This document shows positions 17,654-51,284 of a DNA stretch of 52,818 nt, piece after piece (within the stretch, counting starts at the first letter, position 1; every line of letters starts with the position of its first letter). The position numbers and the translations under genes were made by a program. This DNA comes from a virus. Taxonomy: Duplodnaviria > Caudoviricetes. The notes beneath the pieces are model-generated. The model was not told the origin of the DNA. It was given only the letters and a program-made list of their open reading frames with translations, and made no database searches. The stretch spans positions 1 to 52,818 of the IMG/VR virus record IMGVR_UViG_3300033153_006359, one strand, 5' to 3'.

Positions 17654-17848
17654 TTACCACACTCCAAGCCATAAGCCAACACCGTGAATCCATGCTACCG
17701 GAACAGCTATCGCACCAGCAATAAGGAACCCCCACTCTCCTGCTCTGAAGCAGTGGACTACATGAGTACCCCATGCTGCTAAGCTGGTTATGATAAATAA
17801 TACTAATGCTACAACTGCTACCGCAAATGACTTCTCATCGTTCTCCAT
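17654..17848 (-). CDS. small two-TM membrane protein
   Basis: Two hydrophobic segments; AGGAG SD, TAATG coupling. Confidence 0.6.
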   Translation of the reverse strand: MENDEKSFAVAVVALVLFIITSLAAWGTHVVHCFRAGEWGFLIAGAIAVPVAWIHGVGLWLGVW

Positions 17849-18537
17849 TACTTCTCCTGTAATAACCATGTATTAGATATAGCCTTGAAGCTATATGAAT
17901 CATCTCTAAGATCTCGTATAACAATACCTTCTCTAGCGAAGGGGCCAAGCATACTCTCTTCAGCCTCAGCCTCTTCAAGGTATCCCTCTGTATCCATACT
18001 CTTGATAGGCCCGATGTGTGGTACCATCTTATAACCTAGCTCATCGAAGAGTCTAAGCTTCTCTACCATGCACAGGTATCTCTGCTCATCTATATCGTAT
18101 GCATTGTAGAAATATGTATCTCTACCTACGAGCTTATATCCATTACCTTGGATACCTAAGCCAATGATCTCCCCTTGGATAGCTATACTTCTACCTTCCT
18201 TCTCACAGTATGAGCGTAAGCGAGACTCTGCTTGTAGCTGCCGAGCCATATCAGTCCAGTTGCTTGTACATCCCGTACTCTTATACCATATATTTCTACT
18301 ACAGATGCCGAAGAGTCCTCGCTTAAAGAGGCCTACCTTCTCATCACGCTTGTAGAATAAGGTAAGAGACTGACCATCAAGCTTCTCTGTATGGTACAAG
18401 CCACGTTCCTCTGTCTCCTTACGTACATCCTGTATATTCTGTACTCTCCTCTCGTCACTGTGAGGGATTGTTATAGTGCCCCGCTTATACGGTAAACCTA
18501 ATAGCTGCCTCACTTTACTTTGAATGTTTATCCACAT
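17848..18537 (-). CDS. RNA ligase (DRB0094/Rnl2-like), C-terminal catalytic part of a split gene
   Basis: IPHSDERRVQN, motif I TEKLDGQS, CSRN, IQGEIIG.GIQGN.Y, EGIV, SFKAISN; AAGGAGG 10 nt before ATG 18537. Confidence 0.85.
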   Translation of the reverse strand: MWINIQSKVRQLLGLPYKRGTITIPHSDERRVQNIQDVRKETEERGLYHTEKLDGQSLTLFYKRDEKVGLFKRGLFGICSRNIWYKSTGCTSNWTDMARQLQAESRLRSYCEKEGRSIAIQGEIIGLGIQGNGYKLVGRDTYFYNAYDIDEQRYLCMVEKLRLFDELGYKMVPHIGPIKSMDTEGYLEEAEAEESMLGPFAREGIVIRDLRDDSYSFKAISNTWLLQEK

Positions 18538-18982
18538 AGTCTGCTGCCCTCCTTAGTACACTTGAGTTATCTTTAAAATGGCCTAGTCCGACATTACAGA
18601 TGTCACATAAGAGTGACCTAACCTCCCCAGTTCTATGACAGTGATCTACATGGAGAATATTCTTCTTACCACTGTCAAGTGAGAGCCCGCATATATCACA
18701 GCAACCCCTCTGTACATCCATCATATCTCGTAAGTTTTGTTCAGTTAGACCATACATCTTCAACCGCTCCCTCACATACCTTCTATATCTGATAATATCC
18801 TTCCCTATCTTATCAGATCTAATTCTTCTCTTTTTAATTATAGCCTCGTTGTTAGCTTTATAGTATGCTGCCCCATTCTTTCTTCTACAAACCTTGCACC
18901 AAGAGTGCAGCCCTTTAATAGCTTTGACGTAAGGGAACTCACTTTCTTCTTTCAGTTCATTGCATGAACAACAAGTCTTCAT
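18515..18982 (-). CDS. Endonuclease VII-type HNH homing endonuclease inserted in the RNA ligase gene
   Basis: N-terminal CxxC..CxxC; QRGCCDIC...HVDHCHRTGEVRSLLCDICNVGLG. Confidence 0.88.
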   Translation of the reverse strand: MKTCCSCNELKEESEFPYVKAIKGLHSWCKVCRRKNGAAYYKANNEAIIKKRRIRSDKIGKDIIRYRRYVRERLKMYGLTEQNLRDMMDVQRGCCDICGLSLDSGKKNILHVDHCHRTGEVRSLLCDICNVGLGHFKDNSSVLRRAADYVDKHSK

Positions 18983-19476
18983 ACCCAGATCTCCCACTCA
19001 GGCCACCCACCATTCTTCCTAGGCCATAACACTTGATGTAGCTTACGAGTCAAGCTGAAGCGTAACATCCAAGCATGCTTAATCTTCTTCTTCTTATTCT
19101 TACCTCCGTACTTCTCTTGTAGCTCAGCTGGACTTAAGTACTTAGTTACTCCTAGCCACTTAGAGACATCCTCTCCTAAGTTTATCTTACGATCAGTATT
19201 AAGGATAGATAAGGGTAAGGCTAGGCCCTGAGCTAACTGCCCCATGAACCTAGCTGTCTTCACTCGGAACTTCCTAGGACGCATGAACTCTGACCAGTCC
19301 TTCTCAGGCAACACTGAGTCTATCTCGAAGAAGATGCATAGATCTCCCTGCTTAAACTCACCCTTCTTAACTACACATTGCCATCCATCTACTAGTGCTA
19401 GCTCTATCCTATCAGCCTTAGGTATAGGTAGTAGCTCCTTAATCTCTCGTACTGTAGCTAATTGTCTACTCATCAT
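18979..19476 (-). CDS. RNA ligase (DRB0094-like), N-terminal part of a split gene
   Basis: RQLATVREI..L.PIPKADRIELA.VDGWQCVVKKGEF..GD.CIFFEIDSVLP...RGQ-like GQLAQGL...LGVTKY. Confidence 0.85.
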   Translation of the reverse strand: MMSRQLATVREIKELLPIPKADRIELALVDGWQCVVKKGEFKQGDLCIFFEIDSVLPEKDWSEFMRPRKFRVKTARFMGQLAQGLALPLSILNTDRKINLGEDVSKWLGVTKYLSPAELQEKYGGKNKKKKIKHAWMLRFSLTRKLHQVLWPRKNGGWPEWEIWV

Positions 19477-22831: not shown

Positions 22832-23259
22832 CGCTTATATCTCCTATCGATATTCTTTCTATATTTCTTTAGCTCTAAGTTCATATACTCAGAACCCTTA
22901 TTGACTAACCGCTTCTCTAGCAGTATCCTTACGAACTGTCTATCATCTACCTTGACACCTTGCTTATTCAACCACTCCATTACACAATCTTCAATGGCCT
23001 TAAGACAATTACTTAGATCGGATAAGGGAGATGATACACCTACCTTCATATACAGTTGCAGGTTCCCACATAAGGCTACTGATCTACCATCATATTCTCT
23101 AGAGAGGTAGCCTAGTACATCCTTCCGGAACCTCTTGTAGTATACACTACGATGCTTACGTCCTCCATAGATCTTGTTTGTACTCAGTGCCTTGTATGGT
23201 AGCTTCAATTGGATACCATGTCTTGCCCTCTTCTTCGGTGGGCTACCCTTACCCCTCAC
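22828..23259 (-). CDS. rusA: RusA-like Holliday junction resolvase
   Basis: LPY..LSTN..Y...SDLSNCLKAIED...DDRQ. Confidence 0.7.
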   Translation of the reverse strand: MRGKGSPPKKRARHGIQLKLPYKALSTNKIYGGRKHRSVYYKRFRKDVLGYLSREYDGRSVALCGNLQLYMKVGVSSPLSDLSNCLKAIEDCVMEWLNKQGVKVDDRQFVRILLEKRLVNKGSEYMNLELKKYRKNIDRRYKR

Positions 23260-24218
23260 CAGCGTATCCCCTTATCATCCTTGGGTAGTATCCACTTATC
23301 CTTATAGCTACGTACTAGGTATACGAGTCTAGCTGTCTGCTGTATCCATAAGAAGATACGCTTATGGTACTCAGCCTCCGTCTCTCCATCCCTCTGCTTC
23401 TCCTTAGTACAGTAGAGCTTGTGCATCATCTTGACGAGTGTGAAGTCATCAGTCTTAAGCCAATCTACGCTAGCGAAGGCCTTCTTAAAGCCTACCTTAC
23501 CTAACCCTCTTGGTGTCTTGATATTGTCCGTACTATCACCAGCAGCTATCTGCTCCCACAGATTATACCTCCCACCTATATCTGTAACTACCGTATGCTT
23601 ACCTGTATAATCGCTGAACTTCCCTCGGATCTGCTTAAGATCCTTATCTACTCCAACGATTACCCATGGCTCAGCAGCCTCCTCTAACTCCTTAGCTCGT
23701 ATGATAACCATGTCATCAGCCTCGTACCCTACTACTGTACGGGCACCTACGTTCTCCTCAAGCCATACCTTACATGCAGTGAGGTGCTCAGGTCTCCGCT
23801 TACCCTTACGATTAGCCTTGTATGTACTCAGTACATCATCTCTGAAGTTCCCCTTAGGTGTCAGGTAGTACTCACATTTGTTCTTACTGAAGATAACTAA
23901 CTTACTCTTCAGTATCTTGATAGCATTCTCCACTGGCTCAGGCTCCCATCGCTGCTCATACCTAAGCCCTGTGCTACTGAAGCTCTTCTCAGCTAGCACT
24001 GCATCCTTCTTATACTTGTATGGCCCAATCTCCTTAGTGCCCTCCACGAGCCACCACTGTGACCCATCGGTCACAGCAGCAGCAGTGTACGCTAATGTGT
24101 CGGCGTCCAAAAGTAGTATATCCTTAGGGTTAAAGGGTGTCGGCTTAAGTGCTTTGTGTATCTCTGTGATTGCCTCTGTAGTAGAAGGGTCACTCATCTT
24201 TGTTAAGTCATCAAACAC
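23256..24218 (-). CDS. 5'-3' exonuclease (T7 gp6-like)
   Basis: LLDAD.LAY, NFR....YKANR....P, EADD, DKDLKQI.G, GDSTDNI...GLGK. Confidence 0.9.
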   Translation of the reverse strand: MFDDLTKMSDPSTTEAITEIHKALKPTPFNPKDILLLDADTLAYTAAAVTDGSQWWLVEGTKEIGPYKYKKDAVLAEKSFSSTGLRYEQRWEPEPVENAIKILKSKLVIFSKNKCEYYLTPKGNFRDDVLSTYKANRKGKRRPEHLTACKVWLEENVGARTVVGYEADDMVIIRAKELEEAAEPWVIVGVDKDLKQIRGKFSDYTGKHTVVTDIGGRYNLWEQIAAGDSTDNIKTPRGLGKVGFKKAFASVDWLKTDDFTLVKMMHKLYCTKEKQRDGETEAEYHKRIFLWIQQTARLVYLVRSYKDKWILPKDDKGIRW

Positions 24219-24759
24219 ATCTTCTCCTTATATATGATAAGACACCCTCAGCTTTATATACTTCCTCCTGAAGGTGTCCAACTGCCTTATTACAATCACC
24301 GCAAAGTAATGCCCTAACCTCACCGGAGCTGTGATCGTGATCAACTACTGGTTCCTCTAGCCAATCTCCACAACTATCACAACGCCCTCCCTGACTCTCC
24401 ATCATCTCCCTGTACTTCTCTTCAGAGAGTTTATATGTAGTCATCAGGTTCCATATCTTAGTCTGATACTTACCCTTATCTGTCTTAGCGTGTGCCTTCT
24501 TCTTAGCTATGACATCTGGCTTCTGACTGTAGAGCTTCTTAGTTGCGGCCCTACCTGCCTTCACATCATCAGGCACCGAGTGGTAAGCTTTCTTCCTCCT
24601 CTCAGAAAGCTTACCTTGATCTAGGTCATCCCTATATTTCTTAGCTCTAAGATTATAGCATACCTTACAAAGAGTATTATGTCTTCCACCTTTGTTAGGT
24701 TTAATCTTAGGGAACTCTTCTAACTCCTTCATCTCTCCGCATGTCTTACATAACCGCAT
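24211..24759 (-). CDS. Endonuclease VII-type HNH homing endonuclease
   Basis: CKTC...CKVC; QGGRCDSC...VDHDHSSGEVRALLCGDCNKAVG. Confidence 0.88.
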   Translation of the reverse strand: MRLCKTCGEMKELEEFPKIKPNKGGRHNTLCKVCYNLRAKKYRDDLDQGKLSERRKKAYHSVPDDVKAGRAATKKLYSQKPDVIAKKKAHAKTDKGKYQTKIWNLMTTYKLSEEKYREMMESQGGRCDSCGDWLEEPVVDHDHSSGEVRALLCGDCNKAVGHLQEEVYKAEGVLSYIRRRCV

Positions 24760-27994: not shown

Positions 27995-29650
27995 CTATGA
28001 GAACCCATACTTAATCTCCTCTAGCTTCTTCGTCATTTGATTATACTTAAGAGAGCACACTCGACCACTCTTACTACCATCAAGCCTGCTCTTCAGCACC
28101 CTTACCTTCAATGTATCCCTAATCTCCTCATCCTCATTCAGTAGATCCCTTTCTAATCCTAGGATTAAGCTAGAGTATCTGTACTGGCTACGACTACCTG
28201 TCATTTCCGATGCAAGTACTCGTCCTCCCTCCTCATGTGGCTTACCCTTAGCATTGTTAAGGTGATTCACAAGTATAACACATAGCCCTGTCTCTTGCGT
28301 TATCTTTATCATGTCACCCATGATGGTACCGAGTAACTCATTACCCTCACTCGCAGACTTACCTACTACAAGGGAGGATACAGGATCTACGATAGCTACC
28401 TGCATACCTAAGCTACAGTACATACGCATCGAGGTAGCCATAGCTGTCCAGTTACCGTTGTAGTGGCTACTATCGTATATCATACAGCTCTTCTCTAGCG
28501 AAGAAGCTACCTTCTCAGCCTCCACTGCATCATACACAGTTCCAGGTACACCGATAGGTACACCCATCTCATACGCTACAAGATTTCTAAGCACTGTCTC
28601 CGGACTCTCCTCTAGAGAATAGATACCCACCTTGATACCATGTGTATCCATCAGGTGCTTATGTATAGCTCGTACAAAGATAGTCTTACCTGCTGAGGGT
28701 GCAGCTGCTACGGATATGATAGCTCCCTTCGAGATACCATACGTAAGCTCATCAAGTGAGGCCCACGGTGTACTGTAACCCATAGGTATAGGCTCAGCTA
28801 AACTCATCTTTAGCTTAGAGATATCAACGAGAGAGTCTGGCCTGTACATCTCAGCACGATAGTATGCATCAATCAGTACCTCTGGATGTCCATCCATCAG
28901 CACCTCATTAGCATCCTTATACTCACCAAGATCCATGAATAATGCTAAGGGATACAGCGATGCCATCTCCTTCTTCCATGCTATACCTGCATCATCATTG
29001 TCTCCGCATACTACTAACTCCTTATAGGAACTGATGAACTTATCTTGCTCACCTATCACCTTCATGTTAGCACCGAGAGGGAGAGATGTAATCGTGGGGA
29101 CTGCATAGGAGACAGTAGTGAATGCCTCGGCTATACTTAAAGCATCTATCTCACCCTCTGTAATGATAAGCCTCTTACTCTTCTTCGCTAGAGACTGTCC
29201 GAATAACTCAACCTTGTGCCCCTTAGTCTTCCCTGATATCCAGAAGTCCTTCGGTAGAGTCCGTACCTTATCAGCGATAGTCTTACCCTTCACTGTGAGA
29301 GGGGAACGTAGACCTACCAGTGCTCCTCCATCGTACGTTCCTGTAACATTGAACTCAGCATACACCTCTGGTGATATCGACCTGTAAGGCTCCGTAAGAG
29401 GAGTGTGTACGAAGACAGTCTCTCGCTCCTCTACCACCTCTGACTCACCCATCTCTTCTATCAATTCTGCAAAGCTCTTCACTCTATCCTCACCCTCCTC
29501 TATACTTCCATCGGCCCTTACATACAGCCTAGGGTGGTAAGGTTTATCACAGCACCACGTTACACCATCTTGCATTAACCATAGATGGTCTCCAGTTTTA
29601 TCATGACCTAGTGAACGGCATTTCTCACAAGGCTTATTTCTATCTCCCAT
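27995..29650 (-). CDS. primase-helicase (T7 gp4-like)
   Basis: Zn-finger CEKC; TOPRIM ITEGEIDALS, DND.AG, KDANE; helicase AAPSAGKT, SLEE, IVDP, VNHL, GS...LGLERD, RVLKSR. Confidence 0.93.
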   Translation of the reverse strand: MGDRNKPCEKCRSLGHDKTGDHLWLMQDGVTWCCDKPYHPRLYVRADGSIEEGEDRVKSFAELIEEMGESEVVEERETVFVHTPLTEPYRSISPEVYAEFNVTGTYDGGALVGLRSPLTVKGKTIADKVRTLPKDFWISGKTKGHKVELFGQSLAKKSKRLIITEGEIDALSIAEAFTTVSYAVPTITSLPLGANMKVIGEQDKFISSYKELVVCGDNDDAGIAWKKEMASLYPLALFMDLGEYKDANEVLMDGHPEVLIDAYYRAEMYRPDSLVDISKLKMSLAEPIPMGYSTPWASLDELTYGISKGAIISVAAAPSAGKTIFVRAIHKHLMDTHGIKVGIYSLEESPETVLRNLVAYEMGVPIGVPGTVYDAVEAEKVASSLEKSCMIYDSSHYNGNWTAMATSMRMYCSLGMQVAIVDPVSSLVVGKSASEGNELLGTIMGDMIKITQETGLCVILVNHLNNAKGKPHEEGGRVLASEMTGSRSQYRYSSLILGLERDLLNEDEEIRDTLKVRVLKSRLDGSKSGRVCSLKYNQMTKKLEEIKYGFS

Positions 29651-30194
29651 GTTTCATCAAGTAGGTTGCTGCTCTCATACTCACCTCCGAACTATCCTTT
29701 AGTAACCCTATACCTGTGTTACAATTAGGGCACAGTAAACCCCTCACCTCACCTGTCTCGTGATCATGATCTATGTGAGGTACCTTTAGAGAGTCTTTGC
29801 AGATTGCACAGCAACCACGTTGTTGAGTTTGAAGTTCAATGTAATCATCTACAGTAATACCATAAGATCTTATGGTAGATACTCTACTAGTGAGAGTTGC
29901 TAATCCGTTCTCCCTCCTTTGTAATCTATAAGCTGAAAGATGTATACCTTTGCACTTCTCCGAACATAACTTAGTGATAGGTGCACCTAATTGCGGGACA
30001 TCCACACCACAAACTAGACATTTTACTATACTAAAATCCTTACCCGTTCTCCTCTTTTTCAAATACTTTTGCATTAAGGTACACTGCTTACATGCTGGTC
30101 TGTATTTATGTACCTCTGACTTGTGATTCTTAAAGAAATGATCTACGTCAGCAGGTAGCACATCCTTACACTTACTACACTTCTTAGTCTCCAT
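29640..30194 (-). CDS. Endonuclease VII-type HNH homing endonuclease
   Basis: QRGCCAIC...HIDHDHETGEVRGLLCPNCNTGIG; N-terminal Cys clusters. Confidence 0.88.
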   Translation of the reverse strand: METKKCSKCKDVLPADVDHFFKNHKSEVHKYRPACKQCTLMQKYLKKRRTGKDFSIVKCLVCGVDVPQLGAPITKLCSEKCKGIHLSAYRLQRRENGLATLTSRVSTIRSYGITVDDYIELQTQQRGCCAICKDSLKVPHIDHDHETGEVRGLLCPNCNTGIGLLKDSSEVSMRAATYLMKHGR

Positions 30195-50762: not shown

Positions 50763-51284
50763 ATGGCTATCAATGAGAAGGTTTGCTCTAAGTGTGGAGC
50801 AGTTAAACCTCTCGGGCATTTCAATAAAGACTCTTCAAAGCCCTCTGGATACTACTCCAGTTGCAGAAGTTGTAATAAAGCTAGAGCTGTAGAATACTCT
50901 TCTCTAAATAGTGCTAAGATTGCCCAACGTGGTATGGATCACTATCTCGCTAATAAGGAGGAGATAAATAAGGCACGTAAAGAGGAGTATAAAGTTCCTA
51001 TTAATTTGTTCAAAAGGTACCAAAGCAGAGTAAAGCATCTCTACGGTATTAGTGCGAACGGTGTGATGGAGTTGATGAATAAGCAAAGAGGTTGTTGTGG
51101 TGTATGTGGTGAATCCTTAGTCTACCCTGATTCAGCTAGGAGCTATTGCATTGACCACGATCATAGTAGTATGTTAGTACGTGGATTACTTTGTCCACTA
51201 TGTAACACAGGCATAGGAGCACTTGGAGATAATCTTAGCTCCTTACAGAAAGCAGTAGAATATTTAAAGAGGACAGAATTATGA
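50763..51284 (+). CDS. Endonuclease VII-type HNH homing endonuclease
   Basis: CSKC...CRSC; QRGCCGVC...IDHDHSS..VRGLLCPLCNTGIG.LGD. Confidence 0.88.
   Translation: MAINEKVCSKCGAVKPLGHFNKDSSKPSGYYSSCRSCNKARAVEYSSLNSAKIAQRGMDHYLANKEEINKARKEEYKVPINLFKRYQSRVKHLYGISANGVMELMNKQRGCCGVCGESLVYPDSARSYCIDHDHSSMLVRGLLCPLCNTGIGALGDNLSSLQKAVEYLKRTEL

Follow-up and report, generated by a model that had tools for sequence, protein, structure and literature searches.

A phage RNA ligase gene interrupted by a free-standing Endonuclease VII-type (Endo VII-type) gene occupies positions 17848-19476 of the stretch of DNA analysed here (hereafter the window), which is a whole IMG/VR virus record (IMGVR_UViG_3300033153_006359; 52,818 bp) from an uncultured phage and is estimated to be 89% complete. 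The GenBank phage collection holds no DNA near-identical to the window, and the window's DNA polymerase is at most 30.5% identical to any phage counterpart in that collection. An earlier note on this DNA, made from the letters alone, had described an RNA ligase gene split in two by a free-standing Endo VII-type gene, and this description is upheld by matches to Pfam, phrog_968 and TIGR02306 and by intact homologues in which the ligase is a single open reading frame (ORF). The anatomy of the split locus is essentially certain: the minus strand carries three ORFs arranged head to tail, in the order N-half, endonuclease, C-half. In the following list of features, L002 is an intact ligase from another IMG/VR contig, NgrRnl is the RNA ligase of Naegleria gruberi, NTase is the nucleotidyltransferase part of the enzyme, and lengths are in nucleotides (nt) or amino acids (aa).

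18979-19476, minus strand: N-half of the RNA ligase, 165 aa, comprising the OB domain and a phage-clade linker; it ends ...NGGWPEWEIWV* with a TGA stop.
18994-18996, minus strand: final ligase codon ahead of the break, Trp161 of WPEW, equivalent to NgrRnl Phe141 (L002 residue 159 maps to 18994).
18991-18994, minus strand: GGAG, 8 nt 5′ of the endonuclease ATG, inside the last ligase codons.
18515-18982, minus strand: endonuclease ORF, 155 aa, from ATG 18982 to a TAA stop at 18515-18517, in a different frame from the ligase halves.
18469-18993, minus strand: insert of 525 nt, absent in intact homologues, seen as the gap between the two L002 ligase matches.
18548-18554, minus strand: AAGGAGG, Shine-Dalgarno sequence for the C-half, 10 nt 5′ of ATG 18537 and within the endonuclease ORF.
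17848-18537, minus strand: C-half ORF, 229 aa, from ATG 18537.
18469-18537, minus strand: new 23-aa N-terminal extension of the C-half; its first 7 codons overlap the endonuclease 3′ end in the other frame and the remainder is the 46-nt spacer.
17848-18468, minus strand: NTase part of the ligase, beginning at I24 (NgrRnl Ile142) and running to the stop, with motifs I to V.
18382-18384, minus strand: motif I lysine K52 in EKLDG, the predicted AMP-accepting nucleophile, which aligns with NgrRnl Lys170 and is invariant in 72 sequences.

The break was fixed against intact relatives. When the L002 ligase was searched against the window record, residues 1-159 matched 18994-19473 and residues 160-369 matched 17854-18468; the insert is therefore 18469-18993, with zero ligase residues lost or repeated. 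Alignment with L002 and L004 places the insertion, between the codons for ...WPEW and (F/I)P(K/H)(T/S)DE, exactly where the earlier note had it, and the note's further figures hold as well. The insert is nearly all endonuclease ORF, with only 57 bases outside it (11 nt before the ATG and 46 nt after the TAA), and AAGGAGG stands inside the endonuclease 3′ end at the stated distance from ATG 18537, behind which the C-half acquires its new N-terminus. On the other side of the break, the N-half gains a tail of four residues (EIWV) after WPEW before its TGA. The GC content of the insert (0.40-0.42, compared with 0.43-0.46 in the flanks) differs too little to argue for a recent foreign origin.

Homologues without the endonuclease are not themselves in two genes, as the earlier note's account supposes. 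The closest DNA-level relatives of the N-half, the IMG/VR contigs L002, L003 and L004 (53-56% identity), are uninterrupted at the insertion site: L002 (371 aa) and L004 (373 aa) each have one ligase ORF that reads ...SGSWPEWFPKTDEERVQN... across the break point, and the L003 ligase is continuous there up to the contig end. P0133, which at 60% identity is the N-half's nearest relative in the protein collection, likewise reads straight through. More broadly, both domains occur in one protein of ~320-395 aa in 114 of the 119 other listed C-half relatives, and a single ligase ORF continues through the C-terminal ...FKAISN..LL motif in 24 of 26 IMG/VR loci (ORFs measured stop to stop), the exceptions being L003, cut by the contig end, and L011, truncated after motif III. 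Five short C-half-like proteins among the 119 lack the OB domain and may be either truncations at contig edges or further splits. In three (P0003, P0048 and P0114), from contigs of ~1 kb, the sequence begins 8-14 residues before the junction, in two cases with Met; the other two (P0041 and P0050) start within the OB domain.

The sequence directly 3′ of the insertion is more divergent than that directly 5′ of it. Across 18442-18468, 13 of 27 bases differ from L004, with replacements of F by I, K by H, T by S and E by R, compared with 7 of 27 bases on the N side, where the final 12 are identical. This pattern may reflect relaxed constraint or a target-site change that protects against the endonuclease, and with three closely related comparators it is anecdotal. 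A BLASTP alignment to P0007 had raised the idea that the 23-aa extension arose by duplication and decay of the 16-18 residues preceding the break. The similarity is not significant. When the extension was compared with the pre-junction segment of 14 close homologues, 459 of 5000 shuffled sequences scored at least as high, as did 142 of the 1902 natural 16-mers from the window.

Profile matches assign both halves to one ligase family. The N-half matched PF21189 (OB domain; expectation value, E, 7.5e-30) and positions 6-152 of the 398 in phrog_968 ('RNA ligase'), and the C-half matched PF09414 RNA_ligase (E 2.2e-17) and positions 161-393 of the same phrog. Against NCBIfam TIGR02306 (RNA_lig_DRB0094), the N-half scored 90 bits over profile positions 1-126 and the C-half 56.9 bits over positions 138-340 of 341. 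Their sum of 146.9 bits lies below the whole-protein cut-off of 151.15, which the intact L002 ligase exceeds (164.3), and we attribute the shortfall to the split rather than to divergence of the motifs. An intact relative matched NgrRnl (PDB 5COT and mutants) with an E of 2e-41; the N-half aligned to chain positions 4-127 (E 2e-23) and the C-half to 143-336 (E 3e-22). The C-half ends in the family's ...SFKAISN..LL tail and carries no further C-terminal domain. On these TIGR02306 and NgrRnl matches to both halves, the gene is an RNA ligase of the Rnl5/DRB0094 family (DraRnl/NgrRnl, TIGR02306), the assignment proposed in the earlier note.

The PDB chain has one extra leading residue, and the published Thr145 and Arg149 fix the numbering. 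In this register the break lies between NgrRnl Phe141 and Ile142, ~15 residues past the N-domain deletion boundary (127) and 28 before the motif I lysine, and the catalytic residues correspond as follows.

NgrRnl Arg4: R4 of the N-half.
NgrRnl Asp53: D53 of the N-half.
NgrRnl Lys121: K112 of the N-half.
NgrRnl Thr145: S27 of the C-half, a like-for-like change.
NgrRnl Arg149: R31 of the C-half.
NgrRnl Lys170: K52 of the C-half.
NgrRnl Asp172: D54 of the C-half.
NgrRnl Glu227: E123 of the C-half.
NgrRnl Phe248: Y144 of the C-half, a like-for-like change.
NgrRnl Glu312: E203 of the C-half.
NgrRnl Lys326: K218 of the C-half.

In NgrRnl, Arg4, Lys121 and Asp53 of the OB domain hold the ATP γ-phosphate and a second metal, and the NTase domain contacts the ATP site through Arg149, Lys170, Asp172, Glu227, Glu312 and Lys326, with Thr145 directed to the ribose (PMC7261155). 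Judged by this alignment, the active-site residues of the window ligase are divided between two polypeptides, and all are retained. Deletion of NgrRnl residues 1-126 leaves 4% of nick sealing (PMC4408790) and a defect in self-adenylylation (PMC4408790, PMC7261155), and so the C-half alone would be expected to be a poor ligase; the same deletion improves sealing of a pre-adenylylated nick 5- to 10-fold over the full-length enzyme (PMC4408790).

Separately, a segment of ~30 aa (HAWMLRFSLTRKLHQVLWPRK..., HAWMLRF...RKLHQ...) lies between the OB and NTase parts (window 18994-19125, N-half residues ~118-161). The closest phage relatives, P0007 and P0010 among them, have it in strongly conserved form, NgrRnl lacks it, and the endonuclease insertion sits at its C-terminal edge.

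The inserted ORF matched PF02945 Endonuclease_7 over nearly the whole model (E 4.7e-22, positions 4-81 of 82) and phrog_2633 (E 2e-34). Four endonuclease copies occur in the 52.8 kb of the window, and D113, H114, H116, N130 and eight cysteines, including those of an N-terminal CxxC...CxxC finger, are invariant across these paralogues; we take the D/H/H/N residues and the cysteine pairs to be putative counterparts of the catalytic and zinc-binding residues of T4 endonuclease VII. By homology, the fold class is Endonuclease VII-type, that is, ββα-Me/HNH-like, and the protein is free-standing. Its closest relative, P0122 (60% identity), also begins MK.C, and the frame is closed by a stop one codon before an upstream GTG. 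The other three copies, each 32-36% identical to the ligase-splitting one and sharing its CxxC...CxxC finger, sit between ORFs and not within a recognisable gene.

24211-24759, minus strand: endonuclease paralogue.
29640-30194, minus strand: endonuclease paralogue.
50763-51284, plus strand: endonuclease paralogue.

The two minus-strand paralogues overlap the start of the next downstream ORF, by 8 nt (23256-24218) and 11 nt (27995-29650); these ORFs have, by eye only, the look of a 5′-3′ exonuclease and a primase-helicase. Related endonucleases are common, with 70 IMG/VR loci at best-segment identities mostly of 29%-50%, and no Rnl5 ligase lies near any of the 70 within the fetched flanks (~3 kb). 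The placement in the ligase gene seems to be an isolated jump into a new site, similar to the 'transposition-like' behaviour described for mobE in Aeromonas phage Aeh1 (PMC2988022).

We searched the junctions for any element that could rejoin the halves at the level of RNA, protein or translation. Between 17000 and 20500 no Rfam intron family matched at E≤10, and two other matches, to the sR3 snoRNA (21 bits, gathering score 41) and to a TYMV pseudoknot (E 8.7), were dismissed as sub-threshold and unrelated. With so few bases outside the endonuclease ORF and no such match, the insert is too small for a group I or II intron core, as the earlier note had argued. The note was also right that it is not an in-frame intein: the two halves share a frame with 11 in-frame stops between them, the added tails are of 4 and 23 aa, and no Pfam intein family matched the three products at E≤0.1, using the same library that detects PF14890 in the pieces of another ligase (L105, below). 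RNA folding around the junctions was no more stable than in shuffled sequence (z -0.47, +1.92 and +0.17), and the first of these values gives no support to a regulatory hairpin at the endonuclease start like those reported for other free-standing endonucleases. RNA-level excision, one of two minor alternatives offered in the earlier note, thus finds neither an intron model nor a significant fold. The other, ribosomal bypassing between matched ATC codons at the two junctions, fares no better. The bypass of T4 gene 60 joins matched take-off and landing codons across a gap of ~50 nt, with a stop directly after the take-off codon; here two sense codons separate the upstream ATC from the N-half TGA and the gap to the downstream half is 525 nt.

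Expression signals fit separate translation of the three ORFs. No sigma-70-like promoter or terminator was found on the coding strand within 17943-19476; a weak terminator-like site falls at 17942-17927, in the C-half 3′ end (three terminator-like sites compared with 0.8 expected in the whole 2.6-kb scan). The TGA of the N-half overlaps the endonuclease ATG as ATGA, with the GGAG 8 nt upstream. In T4 nrdA/mobE an overlapping stop and start is read as translational coupling that limits synthesis of the endonuclease (PMC2988022), and, by likeness to that overlap, endonuclease synthesis in the window is probably coupled to translation of the N-half. At the second junction, AAGGAGG encodes Arg-Arg near the endonuclease C-terminus, a position at which P0122, P0123, P0125, P0127 and the three paralogues have other residues, and of 200 shuffled versions of the surrounding 91 nt, 198 fold better than the native sequence. 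The motif itself occurs 16 times on both strands of the window (8.8 expected). Taken together, the start signals, the Arg-Arg codons and the open region are modest evidence that translation of the C-half has been selected for or was built into the cassette.

We also modelled the two halves as a complex. The docking model scored 0.69, compared with 0.00 for the best of three controls. Of 80 solved complexes, 58 attain that mark, as do 2 of 110 mismatched pairs, counts that are a rough guide here as our own alignments were used. At least 29% of contacts were common to the runs, and the predicted local distance difference test (pLDDT) value of the partner was at least 81. Confident contacts involved N-half residues 4, 30-32, 51-52, 73-76, 81, 83 and 115-122 and C-half residues 28, 31-36, 55-57, 80-83, 222 and 225-229, which places the modelled interface where it is expected, on the OB/NTase face surrounding the ATP site.

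Other phage ligases of this family are broken too, repeatedly and near the window's site. Among 83 short N-half-like proteins (P0135-P0164, P0140-P0208), 10 carry an intein N-fragment right after KTDE(P)R, starting 7 codons 3′ of the window's break, and stop after ~95 intein residues. Another 12 end ~20 residues past motif I in a conserved ...PRFNN(W)(F)G(I)(K/R).FN... tail, which marks an intein-less break. At one locus, L105 (3920-7289), the ligase is in four pieces: the OB domain with an intein N-fragment; an intein C-fragment, 23 extein residues and a second N-fragment; an intein C-fragment with a short extein; and the remaining NTase. The split inteins (PF14890 N and C parts) follow KTDEPR and EKID, 7 and ~30 codons 3′ of the window's break, and the third break, intein-less, comes after ...TFTGKLVPRFNN..., the third piece ending in the PRFNN tail. 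The 480 nt after this third break contain no ORF of at least 50 aa and no Rfam match, and the small ORFs between the pieces showed no endonuclease domain. Of 14 loci compared in the L105 clade, nine (L106-L112, L114 and L117) have an uninterrupted full-length gene, and L113 is uninterrupted to its contig end. These cases, with genomic context from L105 only, suggest recurrent, lineage-wide breaks in phage Rnl5 genes. They show that the family tolerates fragmentation, including one recurring intein-less break in many distinct sequences, and by analogy a working enzyme of two chains becomes more plausible for the window. A different kind of damage is seen at L011 (3992-5615), where homology in the 302-aa ligase ORF ceases past motif III (...IQGNPENIRGQ). 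Unrelated ORFs come next, one of them HTH/XRE-like by eye, and the ligase gene is probably truncated.

We consider it probable that the locus encodes a two-chain ligase from genes in pieces, of the Aeh1 nrdA/mobE kind. Under this reading, an Endo VII-type homing endonuclease gene would have been inserted, with neither intron nor intein, between the ...WPEW and (F/I)P codons, and the three ORFs would probably be carried on one mRNA. Translation of the N-half would terminate at the TGA that overlaps the endonuclease ATG, an arrangement likely to couple endonuclease synthesis to N-half translation and to limit it, and the C-half would restart at ATG 18537 behind the AAGGAGG in the endonuclease's last codons, gaining its 23 N-terminal residues in the process. 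The two chains would then associate non-covalently through the normal OB/NTase interface to form a composite active site, to which the N chain would contribute R4, D53 and K112 for the ATP γ-phosphate and second metal, and the C chain the lysine nucleophile and the remaining contacts. The two-subunit RNA ligase proposed in the earlier note is supported in part: the catalytic residues, the C-half start signals and the docking are consistent with it, and the singleton nature of the split weighs against it.

Several observations weigh against a functional two-chain enzyme. The N-half, the endonuclease and the C-half are each the sole member of their own 90% cluster, with closest relatives at 60%, 60% and 51% identity, respectively, among 5.8 billion proteins, and no second sampled genome shares the split. 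Intact ORFs prove little if the insertion is recent. The docking pass may reflect memory of the solved single-chain NgrRnl, and so likeness rather than binding, and the new tails and N-half residues 123-165 fall outside the confidently placed interface. Sequence conservation gives a mixed picture. At columns at least 90% conserved, the C-half departs at 4 of 39 (K26H, T27S, V78I and S194E), a count that none of 71 intact homologues reaches, and the N-half at 3 of 27 (Y49F, S82A and T105S), reached by 8 of 71; the consensus was built from these same 71 homologues, which biases their own counts low. At an 80% threshold both halves are in range, with the window counts reached by 11 and 9 of the 71. 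The departures are conservative, and His at the K26 position is also found in intact P0015, P0029 and P0155; two of those in the C-half (K26H and T27S) are immediately 3′ of the junction. Finally, Rnl5 is dispensable for growth of Deinococcus (PMC5397189), and loss of the ligase could therefore be tolerated. On the matter of pseudogene decay, which the earlier note had raised as a test of its reading, the 394 codons of the two halves contain no stops or frameshifts, and the slight excess of conserved-column departures in the C-half goes in the other direction.

Much of this would fit an insertion that recently inactivated an accessory ligase, leaving inactive halves whose ORFs are open only from shortness of time, an account we hold possible, if on balance unlikely. 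The absence of the split from every other sampled genome, the absence of a ligase within ~3 kb of any of the 70 related-endonuclease loci, the C-half departures with two at the junction, and the non-essential nature of Rnl5 in Deinococcus (PMC5397189) all favour it, and L011 indicates that phage contigs do retain truncated ligase genes. Yet the 394 codons remain free of stops and frameshifts, every catalytic residue is kept with only conservative substitutions, and the docking model passes its controls, subject to the single-chain caveat. Furthermore, a perfect AAGGAGG located 5-12 nt before a given ATG has a rough chance of ~1e-3 (from 16 copies in 105.6 kb), and here it is provided by unusual Arg-Arg codons of the endonuclease in an open region. 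We regard as very unlikely the view that one half acts alone, for example an NTase chain that seals pre-adenylylated nicks while the OB fragment is a leftover or serves another role. The C-half does contain all NTase motifs, and the truncated NgrRnl handles pre-adenylylated nicks better than the full-length enzyme; against this stand the poor nick sealing and defective self-adenylylation of that same truncation (PMC4408790, PMC7261155). An idle N-half is also hard to square with its retention of conserved residues at 24 of 27 columns and with the docking of the two chains in the model. We know, moreover, of no source of pre-adenylylated nicks. Least credible of all is covalent restoration of one product from RNA or protein pieces, whether by an unrecognised ribozyme, ligase-sealed excision or trans-splicing, or a ribosome hop between the ATC codons. 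The halves are in one frame, the insert being a multiple of three, and split inteins lie a few codons away in related ligases; a shared frame, however, arises by chance one time in three, no more than 57 nt lie outside the endonuclease ORF, no intron family matched even at E≤10, the junction folds do not exceed shuffles, and the tails show neither an intein domain nor a Cys/Ser/Thr-type +1 context with a preceding HN. For a hop, the gap would be ten times the 50 nt of T4 gene 60, and the ATC is not adjacent to the stop.

A bolder version of the two-chain ligase, which we think distinctly unlikely, is that the phage exploits the break. The OB chain would be a separable adenylylation subunit, from which the AMP-charged NTase chain would work free; the cassette would have supplied the Shine-Dalgarno sequence and the ATG, making the insertion neutral from the start; and, taken with the split inteins and the second intein-less break of related phages, the ~60 codons around motif I would be a convergent landing zone, with multi-chain ligases both recurrent and functional. 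The N domain of NgrRnl and DraRnl impedes the final sealing step, and, if this version were true, the locus would encode a naturally two-component Rnl5 ligase whose kinetics or regulation are altered.

The case matters beyond this phage. Intron-less and intein-less splitting of genes by homing endonucleases is known from a handful of studied cases (Aeh1 nrdA, T4 39/60 and phage 25 gene 43), and a host enzyme with a solved homologue and mapped domain roles would provide a clean natural test of a composite ligase site rebuilt from two chains, as well as a test of what element-derived tails do. Automated annotation, for its part, will call the split ligase two 'partial' ligases. Among the titles and abstracts listed in literature searches, none describes an Rnl5 ligase split by an endonuclease. 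The genes-in-pieces class is already known. New here are the enzyme that is split, an Rnl5 RNA ligase whose bipartite ATP site is well mapped, and the element, which is of the Endonuclease_7 type.

Within its own family, the window ligase resembles Deinococcus DraRnl (DRB0094) and NgrRnl in having an N-terminal OB module followed by NTase motifs I-V and no C-terminal appendage, and it differs from them in being two polypeptides and in carrying the ~30-aa OB/NTase insertion that NgrRnl lacks. Among split genes, the 'fractured genes' of Dassa et al. 2009 (PMC2677866) are similar in that an endonuclease gene separates the parts of a conserved enzyme that acts on nucleic acid. In that account, however, the breaks are accompanied by split inteins, which related Rnl5 ligases (L105 and P0140-type proteins) do carry, and the window has no intein halves to rejoin the chains; the endonucleases are GIY-YIG or Vsr-like, and RNA ligase does not appear among the eight host enzyme types named in the available portion of that paper. 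The subunits of the T4 topoisomerase, encoded by 39/mobA/60, and of Aeromonas phage 25 gene 43A/seg/43B reassemble (PMC2988022), which is the outcome we propose here, in systems that involve other enzymes and other endonuclease families. Gene 60 of T4 additionally needs a 50-nt ribosomal bypass, to which nothing in the window is comparable.

The closest parallel is the ribonucleotide reductase locus nrdA-a/mobE/nrdA-b of Aeh1, in which nrdA split by mobE yields an active enzyme with a composite active site (Crona 2011, PMC3045599; Friedrich 2007, cited in PMC2988022). As far as these accounts describe it, a free-standing HNH-superfamily endonuclease gene interrupts a conserved enzyme gene in both loci without intron or intein, and both have an endonuclease that overlaps the downstream half, short unique tails at the break and active-site residues distributed over two polypeptides. 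They differ in the host gene, here an RNA ligase; in the element, here an Endonuclease_7 domain rather than mobE; and in the position of the break, here near a domain boundary and in Aeh1 within a barrel. Activity and a role for the tails have been shown in Aeh1; the window ligase is predicted to be active, and its tails may have a role.

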